64,000 nucleotides of DNA from positions 736,001 through 800,000 of the forward strand of contig CAVQMO010000010.1 of NCBI GenBank assembly GCA_963713605.1, read 5' to 3'. The number at the start of each line of letters is the position of its first letter. Positions within the stretch are counted from its first letter, which is position 1. A model generated the notes under the pieces. The model worked only from the letters and a program-made list of their open reading frames with translations, did no database searches and was not told the origin of the DNA. Position numbers and translations under genes: made by a program. The DNA comes from an uncultured Nitrososphaerales archaeon. Lineage in GTDB: Archaea > Thermoproteota > Nitrososphaeria > Nitrososphaerales > Nitrososphaeraceae. Positions 22,485-26,408 of this stretch are shown here, piece by piece.

Positions 22485-22676
22485 TTACGTATCAGTGATT
22501 TGACGCTTATTTCGTATCCGAAGTATGTATGCGACGGCAACTAGAGCTACTAGTATACCCAACATGGCAAAAAAAGTACCCTCATTCTTTACAGTCCCTT
22601 GTGGCAATATATTCAAAGTACTTGCTTTAACAAATGAACAAGATGCTAGTAGCCCAGTCAAACAGAATACTGACAA
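22485..22676 (-). CDS. Small membrane protein
   Basis: A C-terminal TM helix FFAMLGILVALVAVAYIL followed by the basic tail RIRNKR. The start is uncertain. Confidence 0.45.
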   Translation of the reverse strand: MSVFCLTGLLASCSFVKASTLNILPQGTVKNEGTFFAMLGILVALVAVAYILRIRNKRQITDT

Positions 22677-22812
22677 TTGATGAATTTGGACTAGTCAGTA
22701 TTTAAAGTTCTACCCAGTCTGGCAGGTTATCATATTTTGACCCTCAATTTCCTACTTCGGTGACCACTATTACAGGTTATACATTTATTACTTATTCGCC
22801 TTCAGAGGCAAT

Positions 22813-22884
22813 GATGCTAATGATGAAAAGGAAGAGCCGTCTGAGATAAGCCTCAGTGATGTTGATTATGAGTCCTGAAGCATC
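22813..22884 (+). ncRNA. C/D-box 2'-O-methylation guide sRNA with two guides
   Basis: C box ATGATGA (22820-22826), D' CTGA (22841-22844), C' GTGATGT (22856-22862) and D CTGA (22875-22878), with 12-14 nt spacers and a 6-bp terminal stem GATGCT/AGCATC. Confidence 0.85.
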
Positions 22885-23219
22885 CACTCCTAATCAATGA
22901 GCTTCACAATTTTGAGCTTTCAATACTTAGTTAGTTGTAAGTCATGGGAAGGAAGGTGGGATAATGAAGAGAGAAGTGGTGTGAATGATGGTGGTGAGGA
23001 TGCGACCAAGTCCAGAGGGATCGGAACCAGAACAGGAAGGCGGTGGTGGAAGAGAAGACGTGGATGAAGACAATCTTGAGAACGACTATCGATTCAGTTG
23101 TGCTGGCAAATAAAGTACGACCCATGACATTCGCTATTCGACATCACTCTATATCCACTTGAGAAAAAGCTAAACTCGCTTCAATACTTATTTATAGCTA
23201 CATATGGAAGGTAACCCGA

Positions 23220-23906
23220 ATGAGGCTTGGCTGTCTTTTTTCTGGAGGAAAGGATAGTACCTATGCAATCTATGAAAGCATACGGCATGGGCACGAAATC
23301 AGTTGCCTATTGACGTTATTTCCGCCAAGCAACGAAAGCCTACTTTTTCATTTTCCAAATGTCTATATCACTCCTCTGGTTGCAAAAGCAATAAGACTTC
23401 CACACTTGGTATCGTCGGTTAAGGGAACTGATTTAAAATGTGAGTTAGCAGCACTTGAAGGCCTAATCAATCAGGCAAGGGTTCAATATCATATTGATGG
23501 AATTGTGCACGGCGGTATTTCAAGTAGATTTCAAAAATCCAATTTCAGCAACTGCTGCTCTAAGTATGGCCTTCATGTTGTTAGCCCACTGTGGGGTAAA
23601 CCCGCAATCAAGTTCATGAGAGGACTAATTTCGAATGGCTTCAAAACTCTAATAACAAGTGTTTCAACTATGGGTCTAGACCGATACTGGTTGGGGAAAA
23701 TAATAGACGAGAAGGAACTGGAACGATTAATTGAGTTGAGTGATCGTAATCACTTTAATTTGAATTTTGAAGGAGGAGAGGCAGAAACTTTAGTCTTGGA
23801 TAGTCCTATTCATCATGAAACAGTTGATGTTATGGACTTTGAAATTCAATGGGATGGTCAGCGTGGAATTTTTAAAATAACTAGCGTAGGGCTAAAATCA
23901 AAATAA
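23220..23906 (+). CDS. Diphthine-ammonia ligase family PP-loop ATPase (Dph6-like)
   Basis: Motifs LFSGGKDS, SLLFH, PLWG and FEGGEAETLVLDSP. Confidence 0.88.
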   Translation: MRLGCLFSGGKDSTYAIYESIRHGHEISCLLTLFPPSNESLLFHFPNVYITPLVAKAIRLPHLVSSVKGTDLKCELAALEGLINQARVQYHIDGIVHGGISSRFQKSNFSNCCSKYGLHVVSPLWGKPAIKFMRGLISNGFKTLITSVSTMGLDRYWLGKIIDEKELERLIELSDRNHFNLNFEGGEAETLVLDSPIHHETVDVMDFEIQWDGQRGIFKITSVGLKSK

Positions 23907-23919
23907 GGAAACAAAAGAT

Positions 23920-25287
23920 ATGCTCGACAGCCTGCGAACAAACCTGAGAAGCGCGCTTAAGAAAATCATTGGCGCTTCTGACATTAATCGTGAGCTAATA
24001 GAATCACTTTGCAAGGACGTCCAAAGGGCATTGTTGCAATCTGATGTTAATGTAAAACTCGTGCTTACTGTCACGCAGAATATTAAACAACGCTGCCTTA
24101 GTGAGCAGCCGCCGAAGGGTCTTTCTCGCAAAGATCATATAATAACAATACTTTACAGTGAATTAGCTGAGCTCCTCGGTTATACGGGTGAAGAGATAAA
24201 AACCATAGATAAATCGGCTCAGCCTGAGGTAGATCTATTCTCATTCAAGCCGGGGAAACTCAACGTTGTACTCATGTTGGGAATTCAAGGAAGTGGCAAG
24301 ACAACGGTTTCCTCAAAACTAGCAAGGTGGTTCACAAAGCATGGGCACAAAGTTGGTGTAGTGGGAGCGGACACATTTCGGCCGGGAGCTCTGACCCAAT
24401 TAAGGATGAACTGTAGCAAGGTCAACGTAGAAGTATATGGTAAAGAAGGCGAGAATGATGCCGTAAGGATTGTTGGGGACGGGATCGATTATTTCAGAAA
24501 ACAGAACATTGACATTGTGATCGTTGATACTGCAGGGAGACATAAGGAGGAATCAGGTCTTTTGGCCGAGATGACAGGCATGTACGAAGTCGCCAGACCG
24601 GAACTCGTATTGTTGGTCATCGATGGCACTATTGGCCAACAAGCCTTTAACCAGGCCAAGGCGTTCCATAGTGCAGCTCCGATCGGGGGCATAGCTATTA
24701 CGAAACTCGATGGAACCGCAAAAGGCGGAGGGGTTCTGGCTGCAGTAGTGGCTACAGGTGCCAAAGTGATGTTCATCGGGACAGGTGAAAGAATTGACGA
24801 TTTAGAGCTGTTTTCTCCAACACGATTTGTTGGGCGTTTGCTTGGGATGGGTGATATAAAAGCCTTGCTCGAGATGGCCAAAGGATTAGAGCTTAAGGCC
24901 GATGAAAATCAGGCAAAAAGGGTATTAAGCGGGAAAATGACAATAGAAGACTTTTATGCACAGATGGAAAATGTAGGAAAAATGGGCCTTAGGAACATTA
25001 TTGATAACCTCCCTGGTTTGTCTGGAATGGTAAAGGAAGATCAGTTAGATGCAATCCAAGGCAAATTGGAAAAATGGAGGGTTATTATTCAGTCTATGAC
25101 AACCGCTGAGCGCTCGGATCCAGATATCGTGAATGATTCTAGGAGGAAACGAATCGCCCGAGGGTCAGGGTTAACGGAACATGATATTAAAGATCTTATT
25201 AAGCAGTACAGTAATTCTAAAGCGGTTATGAAGCAGGCAAAAGGAAGACAGATGCAGGGAATGCTCCGACGATTCGGGATAGGATAG
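23920..25287 (+). CDS. srp54: Signal recognition particle protein SRP54/Ffh
   Basis: GIQGSGKTT, DTFRPGA, DTAGRH, TKLDGTAKGGG and the M-domain RIARGSG. Confidence 0.97.
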   Translation: MLDSLRTNLRSALKKIIGASDINRELIESLCKDVQRALLQSDVNVKLVLTVTQNIKQRCLSEQPPKGLSRKDHIITILYSELAELLGYTGEEIKTIDKSAQPEVDLFSFKPGKLNVVLMLGIQGSGKTTVSSKLARWFTKHGHKVGVVGADTFRPGALTQLRMNCSKVNVEVYGKEGENDAVRIVGDGIDYFRKQNIDIVIVDTAGRHKEESGLLAEMTGMYEVARPELVLLVIDGTIGQQAFNQAKAFHSAAPIGGIAITKLDGTAKGGGVLAAVVATGAKVMFIGTGERIDDLELFSPTRFVGRLLGMGDIKALLEMAKGLELKADENQAKRVLSGKMTIEDFYAQMENVGKMGLRNIIDNLPGLSGMVKEDQLDAIQGKLEKWRVIIQSMTTAERSDPDIVNDSRRKRIARGSGLTEHDIKDLIKQYSNSKAVMKQAKGRQMQGMLRRFGIG

Positions 25288-25304: not shown

Positions 25305-26408
25305 TTGAAGTATTACCTATCATTATGTAAGCAATGCAGGATTAGACAAGGATTCATCGACAGAAAGAATCTAGAAGAACCAAACGAGTGCTTTATTTGT
25401 AATAATTTGATGAGCAAGTTGGAGACCATTAATAATGCGTTAGTCAGCAGGGTGAGTGACGGTTATGAATTTAGAACATTTCAGATCGGAGTCTCGCTCC
25501 CTTCCTCTTACGTTGAAAGAGAGGACAATATTAGGTCAAGACTGAGGGTTAAGGGAAGAAACAGTATAAAGAATCAATTTTTGTCAAATCTTAGAGAAAT
25601 GTTCAAACATGCTCTAAATAAGGAAATGGATTACACATCTCCGGATCTCAGAATAGATCTGGTAATTAATGAAGATAATGAGTTTTTTTTTAATATTATT
25701 CCTACACCTATTGTACTCACATGTAGATACTTAAAAAAGAGACGTGGGATACCTCAAAAACAGACTGTACTGCCCATTATCAAAAGTCAACTCCTAAAAG
25801 ATGATTCCCATTGCGAAAAGTCCACCAGTTTGGAAGAAGTGGTATCTGAATATCTTAAGCAGATAACTTCAGGTGTTAAAGTAAAATTTTCATGGATAGG
25901 CGGAGAAGATAAAGAAAGTCTTGTACTAGGTAAAGGTAGGCCATTTTTTGCTGAGATTATAAAACCGAAGCGTCGAATTATAACTGAACACAATATTAGT
26001 TTGAAGGAGAAAGGGATTGAGCTTTTTGTGTTAAGCGCCTCCAAGAATTTGCCACAATATCCCATGAAATTTGTTTCTATGACACGGATTTCAATTCTAG
26101 CCGAAAGATTAGTATGTAGTAAGGAACTTAATTGCTTACCTTCACTTAGTGGGCGGACTATTTGGTTTAGAAACAAGAAGAGGATCATTAGTAGGGATGT
26201 GCATAGTGTTAAGGTAGTCAATATCCATGGGAAGAATTTTGAACTCGAAATCATCGCGGAAGGTGGGTTACATATCAAACAGTTCGTGGGTGGGAAGGAG
26301 TATTGCGAACCGAATATTTCGACCATATTGGGAGTGAGGTGTGAGTGCATAAGTTTTGATATTATTGATGTATGGCTACGAGACCTTCACGCATTGGAGG
26401 TTTTTTAG
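25305..26408 (+). CDS. pus10: tRNA pseudouridine synthase Pus10
   Basis: N-terminal Cys pairs, YLKKRRGIPQ, catalytic-loop GGEDKESLVLGKGRPF and AEGGLHIKQFVGG...PNIS. Confidence 0.82.
   Translation: MKYYLSLCKQCRIRQGFIDRKNLEEPNECFICNNLMSKLETINNALVSRVSDGYEFRTFQIGVSLPSSYVEREDNIRSRLRVKGRNSIKNQFLSNLREMFKHALNKEMDYTSPDLRIDLVINEDNEFFFNIIPTPIVLTCRYLKKRRGIPQKQTVLPIIKSQLLKDDSHCEKSTSLEEVVSEYLKQITSGVKVKFSWIGGEDKESLVLGKGRPFFAEIIKPKRRIITEHNISLKEKGIELFVLSASKNLPQYPMKFVSMTRISILAERLVCSKELNCLPSLSGRTIWFRNKKRIISRDVHSVKVVNIHGKNFELEIIAEGGLHIKQFVGGKEYCEPNISTILGVRCECISFDIIDVWLRDLHALEVF

Follow-up and report, generated by a model that had tools for sequence, protein, structure and literature searches.

A two-guide box C/D RNA gene kept throughout ammonia-oxidising archaea, with predicted targets in a tRNA(CAU) and in 23S rRNA

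What is encoded in the gap that precedes the dph6, srp54 and pus10 genes of an uncultured Nitrososphaerales archaeon, and which RNAs might its product serve? The gap lies in a stretch of 64,000 nucleotides (nt) of contig CAVQMO010000010.1, the whole of which was analysed and is called the window here. A first-pass annotation, made from the sequence alone, had proposed that it holds a box C/D small RNA (sRNA) with two guides, one directed at the wobble cytidine of a tRNA with a CAU anticodon and the other at the peptidyl-transferase region of 23S ribosomal RNA (rRNA). We conclude that positions 22813-22884 of the forward strand are an archaeal box C/D guide RNA gene of about 72 nt. With a probability of roughly 0.8, we read its product as a dual-guide C/D sRNA for (i) C34 of the tRNA(CAU) whose acceptor stem reads GCCGGGG, and (ii) the 23S cytidine equivalent to Escherichia coli C2510, the two guides being independent of each other.

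The proposed C-D'-C'-D layout with its 6-bp terminal stem is present in full, with all boxes in place (Table 1), and the genes flanking the gap, dph6-srp54-pus10, were confirmed by Pfam. A single A separates the 5' stem strand from the C box. The D spacer is exactly 12 nt long, the usual length in archaeal C/D RNAs being about 12 nt, and the D' spacer measures 14 nt here and about 13 nt in compact relatives. Searched as a pattern (TGATGA, 10-16 nt, CTGA, 3-15 nt, TGATG, 13 nt, CTGA), the four boxes gave one match in the 64-kb window and none in 100 dinucleotide shuffles. A looser scan of the whole reference assembly (G000; 4.09 Mb, 15 contigs, 87% complete), in which a terminal stem was required, returned three candidates, compared with one in a mononucleotide-shuffled genome; among these three, complementarity of at least 10 nt to rRNA or tRNA was found in the 22813-22884 element only. 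Folding of the single sequence shows nothing remarkable (z = -1.22), which is what a C/D RNA should give. An RNAfold hairpin spanning D' (CUGAG...CUCAG) was dismissed because it is not kept in relatives, and a scan for sigma-70 promoters and terminators was set aside as not meaningful for an archaeon.

Both guides match the organism's own RNAs over at least 10 bp, one in a tRNA and one in 23S rRNA. ARAGORN called two CAU tRNAs in the assembly. The first, an intron-less gene of 76 nt (C1:819808-819883; acceptor GCCGGGG, anticodon arm UUCGA-CUCAUAA-UCGAA), carries GACTCATAATCg, or GACUCAUAAUCG in a longer reading, and its nt 30-41 pair with the D guide UGAUUAUGAGUC through 11 Watson-Crick pairs (nt 30-40) and U:G41. 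G22870, the fifth base upstream of box D (position N+5), faces C34 (C1:819843), as the first-pass annotation had predicted. When each guide was shuffled with its composition retained (5000 trials each) and compared with the rRNA operon and 36 tRNAs, the observed run was equalled by 13 of 5000 shuffled D guides. The only exact match to the 12-nt D-guide target outside the sRNA itself, C15:81768-81779 on the reverse strand, was rejected: it has no tRNA-like context and is at chance level for the genome size.

On the 23S side, the gene (C1:880853-883835) reads CGGCUCUUCCC, with the target site gatgtCGGCTCTTCCc in the context gaugu-CGGCUCUUCC-c. Positions 22830-22839 of the D' guide (GGAAGAGCCG, guide positions 2-11) form 10 Watson-Crick pairs with C1:883441-883450, and G22836, the fifth base upstream of D', faces C1:883444, the last C of CGGC. 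The first-pass annotation was right that N+5 falls on the C2510 equivalent, which is the C following GAUGUCGG in the organism's own 23S rRNA; the duplex is 10 bp and not 11, because that rRNA reads as it does at this site. Shuffled D' guides equalled the observed run in 103 of 5000 trials. As each guide match alone is unlikely but not overwhelming, the argument is carried by the comparative data.

The site was numbered with the supplement of Dennis et al. 2015 (PMC4644070), in which seven archaeal 23S rRNAs are aligned with E. coli. There the target C stands in column 84 of the block ending at 2800, that is, at alignment position 2784; the same source equates C2830 with E. coli C2556 and C2880 with C2606, an offset of 274 that, with the gapless E. 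coli rows, makes the target C2510. Position C2784 is also listed there, among the predicted targets of both Methanopyrus kandleri sR7 and Ignicoccus hospitalis sR473. The site lies in the strand leaving the peptidyl-transferase loop, beside the catalytic centre of the ribosome. Its human counterpart is presumably Cm4456 (Cm denoting 2'-O-methylcytidine) of 28S rRNA, in keeping with rRNA numbering. For Cm4456, which older numbering calls Cm4426, PMC9941101 gives SNORD49A/B as the guides.

BLAST with a 131-nt region recovered close copies of the element from all 13 same-genus genomes, the unpublished G013 included, and recognisable copies in other genera and families. Of 30 BLAST loci, 26 copies entered alignment A1; a near-duplicate (L011), the copy from unpublished G013 (L012), a locus with no core (L029) and a doubtful one (L031) were left out. 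In A1 the terminal stem extends to nine pairs, of whose cells 94.0% are paired, against 31.6-49.5% when the partner strand is slid by one to three columns. Both sides change in eight of the nine pairs, and the observed values were reached by none of 500 shuffles. The GAAGAGCC portion of the D' guide is invariant in the same alignment. Elsewhere the element is more flexible: the D'-C' loop shrinks to 4-6 nt in a compact 65-nt form and reaches about 35 nt in some relatives, and the first two letters of the D box vary (AUGA, UUGA, ACGA, CCGA) while its GA adjoins the terminal stem in all copies.

From A1 we derived a covariance model, R1, which detected the RNA in 122 of 151 genomes sampled from the class, including 107 of the 110 high-quality ones. 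By family, it was detected in 80 of 80 genomes of f13 (one being the unpublished G168), 3 of 3 of f1, 3 of 3 of f9, 8 of 10 of f21, 7 of 8 of f22, 11 of 17 of f23, 7 of 9 of f18 and 1 of 14 of f19. In a phylum-wide sample, good matches outside the class were confined to f37 (4 of 5 genomes), where the D' guide is kept and the D guide is unrelated. A two-guide pattern scan of named genomes pointed the same way: among the 80 matches listed, 63 were from ammonia-oxidiser lineages, all 63 with the full box layout and labelled Nitrosopumilus, Nitrosopumilaceae, Nitrosarchaeum, Nitrosotenuis, Nitrososphaeraceae, Nitrososphaera, Candidatus Nitrosocosmicus and the like. The other 17 rows listed, all bacterial, are box-less and were rejected as chance matches of a gapped pattern. 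Boxes and guides, whose conservation the first-pass annotation had proposed to check, are conserved, and the guide RNA is kept throughout ammonia-oxidising archaea.

A change in the D' guide bears on the 23S pairing. In alignment A2, the guide reads GGAAAAGCC in 17 of 17 copies from f13, and GGAAGAGCC in 12 of 12 copies from other families as well as in the window's own. The corresponding 23S words are distributed in the same way: GAUGUCGGCUUUUCC (GATGTCGGCTTTTCC) occurs in 69 of 80 f13 genomes, G168 included, and among 70 others only in a single f20 genome, whereas GAUGUCGGCUCUUCC (GATGTCGGCTCTTCC) occurs in none of the 80 f13 genomes, in 34 of the 70 others and in the window's own. Genomes that match neither word presumably lack an assembled rRNA. 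Where the f13 guide has changed from G to A, the facing 23S base has changed from C to U, one evolutionary event of the kind that pairing predicts, and this compensatory change supports the D' pairing.

The D guide can be judged by its register and its persistence. We parsed 153 distinct copies, with L012 excluded and the bacterial rows falling outside the core pattern. Of the 153, 144 retain the tRNA guide core GATTATGAG, across families whose flanks and loop have diverged fully, which argues for selection on the guide, and the base facing C34 stands at N+5 in 131. It is quite unlikely, in our judgement, that the 23S guide alone is functional, with the tRNA match a relic, or that the RNA is mainly a folding chaperone that does not methylate. 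The D' guide is indeed the more widely kept of the two, as the f37 genomes illustrate; the tRNA guide is absent from 6 of the 153 class copies (a further three were mis-parsed); and chaperone roles have been proposed for dual guides (PMC4644070). The 144 cores and 131 N+5 registers nevertheless speak for selection on the tRNA guide, and guidance of Cm34 is known from experiment in other archaea and in humans.

In several copies the 23S guide is kept and the D guide has been replaced: L019 (G032), L027 (G026), L030 (G037) and the f37 loci L177-L180. In G037 the replacement, CGAATCAGAGTG, would suit an anticodon arm bearing CUG and set C34 at N+5. Such replacement suggests that guides may switch between the wobble cytidines of different tRNAs.

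Which isotype does the targeted tRNA(CAU) belong to? Most likely it is the elongator tRNA-Met, although the identical guide RNA might instead serve the AUA-decoding tRNA-Ile2(CAU), a reading we consider unlikely. Its appeal is that the anticodon stem of the targeted tRNA (TTCGA/TCGAA) is identical to that of the organism's own tRNA-Ile(GAU), to which the targeted tRNA as a whole is identical in 60 of 79 columns, compared with 56 of 76 for the other CAU tRNA. Further, the set of CAU tRNAs is incomplete, since ARAGORN found no initiator-type tRNA in the 87%-complete assembly. The GCCGGGG-type CAU tRNA is, however, orthologous across the class, and its anticodon arm differs by family: UUCGA/UCGAA in the window's own family, f1 (4 genomes); CCAGA/UCUGG in f23; YUGGA/UCCAG in f21 (L081 and L113-L115 among these), where the T arm carries an insert; and CCAGA/UCUGG with an intron directly 5' of A31 in f22, f9 and f13. 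The likeness to tRNA-Ile is limited to f1, and orthologues elsewhere keep GCCGGGG with stems (CCAGA/TCTGG or YTGGA/TCCAG) unlike those of their tRNA-Ile(GAU). It is the other CAU tRNA (C10:850575-850649; arm ACCGG-CUCAUAA-CCGGU) whose acceptor stem, GGGCCCA, matches the GGGCCGA of tRNA-Ile(GAU). We know of no precedent for a ribose methyl on C34 of tRNA-Ile2. That cytidine becomes agmatidine (PMC7668247), and the introns of the targeted tRNA in several families fit the precedent of elongator tRNA-Met genes with C/D-guided Cm34 (PMC2584109). The portions of the literature searched offered no usable archaeal rule for the identity of tRNA-Ile2 or for TiaS, and the supplements of PMC7668247, one file excepted, contained no matching tRNA sequence.

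The intron measures about 41 nt in f13 (L157-L159, three genomes); f22 and f9 have shorter ones at the same place. The precursor tRNA of these three f13 genomes reads ...AAUA-CUCAUAA-UCUGG, and their guide GGAUUAUGAGUA forms 11 Watson-Crick pairs and G:U41 with it, the guide base that adjoins box D pairing with the last base of the intron. ARAGORN did not call the intron- or insert-bearing GCCGGGG-type genes (L157-L159, L116 (G045), L117 (G032), L081, L113-L115). Other routes to the tRNA in relatives were abandoned: BLAST with the tRNA as query mostly picked up tRNA-Ile(GAU); the 11-mer GACTCATAATC was too short as a search word and gave many chance matches; and both the pattern CTCATAATCC and one for an uninterrupted arm missed the targeted tRNA in the compact-form family on account of its intron there.

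In mechanistic terms, L7Ae would bind the kink-turns that the C/D and C'/D' boxes form, after which Nop5 and fibrillarin would assemble on the L7Ae-bound RNA. Each spacer would then pair with its target RNA, the nucleotide opposite the fifth guide position upstream of D or D' receiving the 2'-O-methyl group. The D guide would thereby yield Cm at C34, the wobble position, of the GCCGGGG-type tRNA(CAU), and the D' guide Cm at the 23S equivalent of E. coli C2510. Genes for all three proteins were found: fibrillarin at C1:927396-928043 (273.8 bits), L7Ae at C1:446722-446994 (100.5 bits) and, adjoining fibrillarin, Nop5 at C1:928362-929040 on the reverse strand (Nop domain, 150.1 + 53.1 bits). The first-pass annotation had held that one RNA couples a tRNA modification to an rRNA modification. 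That the two guides share an RNA stands; a functional link between them does not, and they would act independently, merely housed on one molecule.

Several points weigh against the dual-guide reading. The final letter of the C' box is U, off consensus; the D' spacer has 14 nt against the usual 12; and the D' duplex, at only 10 bp, is matched by 2% of shuffles on its own. By eye, pairing of the D guide with the other CAU tRNA could run for nine contiguous pairs, a G:U among them, up to a mismatch at position 39. The Met isotype of the target is deduced from indirect arguments. The 9-nt tRNA core CUCAUAAUC is identical in every target tRNA seen, and because it never varies a compensatory test of the tRNA pairing is impossible. 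In 13 of the 153 copies, from Nitrososphaeraceae genera with a 13-nt C'-D spacer, the base facing C34 is at N+6 and U33 is at N+5 (L022, L024, L025, L037, L055, L195 and L219 are among them); under the strict rule these RNAs would hit U33, so that the rule does not explain this group, and either the ruler is flexible in those genera or their target is a different one. The Rfam model of the haloarchaeal Cm34 guide (RF02163, gathering score 50 bits) has no match in the whole genome at E values up to 10, and is absent among 14 and 38 weak local matches. The Nop5 match falls into two frames: one ends in a stop behind ...LKTGASTS, and the conserved PPKHGILFQHP is read in another; were this break real, the ribonucleoprotein could not assemble, but it is likely to be a one-base assembly error. 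Five low-depth contigs (depth about 3) from four metatranscriptome runs of two studies cover 22852-23197. They include the 3' half of the element and downstream sequence only, none lies over 22600-22851, and they cannot show ends, strand or level; they neither show nor exclude a small RNA. The discrete RNA of about 72 nt and both methylations are predictions from sequence.

How does the element relate to guide RNAs already described? A search with Rfam models gave no match at gathering scores; with relaxed settings, weak matches to C/D-box snoRNA families only were obtained, the best being SNORD49, snoR28 and sR41. As the first-pass annotation had stated, trans-acting C/D guides for Cm34 of elongator tRNA-Met exist in euryarchaea: in haloarchaea this modification is guided by the box C/D RNA sR-tMet (RF02163; PMC4033218), and a Pyrococcus guide for tRNA-Met Cm34 has been predicted, named sR49 in PMC2584109 and also treated in PMC7994747. 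Like these, the window's RNA is a stand-alone, trans-acting C/D sRNA with a D-type guide to the CAU anticodon loop and C34 at the methylation position. The known archaeal guides pair partly with the intron of an intron-containing tRNA-Met (PMC2584109), whereas the window's guide pairs with the mature tRNA only, from an intron-less gene, and relatives of the Nitrosopumilaceae type have just a single guide base that extends into the intron. A second guide with a conserved rRNA target also sets the window's RNA apart from sR-tMet and the Pyrococcus guide. In humans, SNORD97 and SCARNA97 guide Cm34 of elongator tRNA-Met(CAU), as shown by knock-out (PMC6601510). They resemble the window's RNA in having a D-box-dependent antisense element against the anticodon stem-loop and differ from it in that they are eukaryotic, are encoded in introns, span 140-216 nt and have no described rRNA guide; the comparison is by description only.

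For the D' guide, the closest resemblance is to SNORD49 (RF00277) and to Plasmodium snoR28 (RF01604), whose consensus AGGAAGUGCCGUC(A/c)GA lines up with AGGAAGAGCCGUCUGA, the D' guide, at the same distance from the D' box, so that the same rRNA cytidine would be selected. Both scores are far below their cut-offs (21.0 vs 37 bits for SNORD49, 22.8 vs 63 for snoR28), one guide position differs (A vs U), and the likeness is limited to the boxes and the D' guide, the rest being unrelated. Descent and convergence on a conserved target would leave the same likeness and are not distinguishable here. M. kandleri sR7 and I. hospitalis sR473 share the predicted 23S position, as judged from listed targets and not from sequence; their second guides are assigned to 23S G2720 and C2693, not to a tRNA (PMC4644070). 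The best-scoring archaeal family in Rfam was Pyrococcus sR41 (RF01126), also far below its cut-off (19.4 vs 54 bits). Its consensus D guide ends ...CCCUAUGAGcg-CUGA and has in common with the window's guide UAUGAG, the complement of the CAU anticodon, from which we infer that sR41 may itself target a CAU tRNA. The window's RNA would function like members of RF02163, RF01126 and RF00277, yet forms a separate family by sequence model.

Table 1. Features of the guide RNA gene and of the genes that follow it in the window
Feature	Position	Strand	Remarks
A/T-rich TATA-like box TTATACATTTATTA	22767..22780	+	33-46 nt 5' of terminal stem
Terminal stem, 5' strand GATGCT	22813..22818	+	pairs with 22879-22884, 6 bp
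C box AUGAUGA	22820..22826	+	TGA core invariant in alignment A1
D' spacer and guide, 14 nt (DNA AAAGGAAGAGCCGT; RNA AAAGGAAGAGCCGU)	22827..22840	+	
D' box CUGA	22841..22844	+	sequence, alignment A1
Variable D'-C' loop GAUAAGCCUCA	22845..22855	+	11 nt here
C' box GUGAUGU	22856..22862	+	sequence, alignment A1
D guide, 12 nt (DNA TGATTATGAGTC; RNA UGAUUAUGAGUC)	22863..22874	+	
D box CUGA	22875..22878	+	
Terminal stem, 3' strand AGCATC	22879..22884	+	covariation
Spacer between sRNA and dph6, possible transcribed leader	22885..23219	+	335 nt
dph6-like gene, diphthamide synthase family	23220..23906	+	Pfam
srp54	23920..25287	+	Pfam
pus10	25305..26408	+	Pfam

The setting of the gene is conserved as well. 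Of 54 relatives' loci (L003-L061), 39 have a dph6 homologue next to the sRNA, with srp54 beyond it, and in all 36 loci in which both could be placed dph6 is downstream on the same strand. The distance varies: the sRNA abuts the dph6 start codon in f23 and is 36-55 nt from the gene in f13, and 130-1460 nt separate the guide core from dph6 in the window's own genus. The A/T-rich box is nearly unchanged in the same-genus copies inspected and in 3 of 3 representatives of the organism's own genus, and other families have an A/T-rich box of their own at a similar distance from the stem. This box is likely to be the promoter of the sRNA and perhaps also of the downstream operon. As the gene sits behind it in the dph6-srp54-pus10 leader, the sRNA is probably made from the leader of that gene row, by transcription from the A/T-rich-box promoter and trimming to the protein-protected core; archaeal C/D sRNAs made from gene leaders are described in PMC7994747.

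This same setting is what could be said for a very improbable alternative, namely that the boxes are chance words in a spacer or that the sequence is simply a dph6 mRNA leader from which no small RNA arises: the element is invariably located in the dph6 leader, and the metatranscriptome contigs give no read-level sign of a discrete small RNA. It is already contradicted by the comparative data, the element being class-wide, with a covarying stem and with guide and target changing together, while the neighbouring spacer changes freely; the 0 of 100 shuffles that reproduced the box pattern also stand against it.

Both target sites of the dual-guide RNA are of kinds already known in other archaea and in humans, and no new mechanism is involved. 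Two things appear not to have been published before: the family as such in ammonia-oxidising archaea, and the stable combination of one guide for tRNA with one for rRNA. A literature search returned no paper on this RNA; the consulted parts of PMC8339473 and PMC3218864 do not contain it, and the 18 Cm34-guide candidates mentioned in PMC2584109 may include thaumarchaeal ones. Pyrobaculum sRNAs directed at tRNAs have a second guide described as an orphan (PMC7994747), whereas the window's RNA would serve both a tRNA and rRNA, stably across the whole class. The gene adds a well-supported non-coding gene to ammonia-oxidiser genomes at a place to which annotation by open reading frames and by Rfam thresholds is blind. 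It also provides two predicted modifications for these archaea, Cm34 in a tRNA of methionine type and Cm at the 23S equivalent of C2510, and since both targets are guided in humans as well, it offers an anchor for dating individual guide-target pairs.

A bolder extension, which we regard as speculative and rather doubtful, is that the D' module AGGAAGAGCCGUCUGA (guide and D' box) is homologous by descent to that of SNORD49 and snoR28, and the C34 guide to that of SNORD97, and that the RNA is processed from the 5' leader of the dph6-srp54-pus10 mRNA. If so, one thaumarchaeal RNA would preserve two guides that eukaryotes carry on separate snoRNAs, placing it among the oldest traceable guide RNAs, and the supply of a modifier of the translation apparatus would be tied to an operon whose other genes also serve translation and tRNA modification.

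Three further features of the genome were observed. A second C/D-like sRNA with degenerate boxes lies outside the window at C10:705263-705329 (+) and was matched by R1 at E 8e-5. Through its D guide, GGATCTTGAGTT, it could pair with the anticodon arm of tRNA-Leu(CAA) and would select C34; the guide matches 9 nt of the intron-containing tRNA-Leu(CAA) gene (C10:574120-574225) and, by reading, 11 nt of the spliced tRNA. Two f42 genomes have guides similar to it. At least five contigs (C2, C3, C10, C12 and C13; e.g., C2:87592 and C10:491235) share a near-identical stretch of about 70 nt (…ggatctccatgtctagctcagacaacac CGGCTCTTC ttttcgctctgg…), which suggests a multi-copy mobile element. Finally, 35 of the 36 tRNAs called by ARAGORN are on C1 and C10, and the other 13 contigs, which together amount to about 1.8 Mb, carry one.

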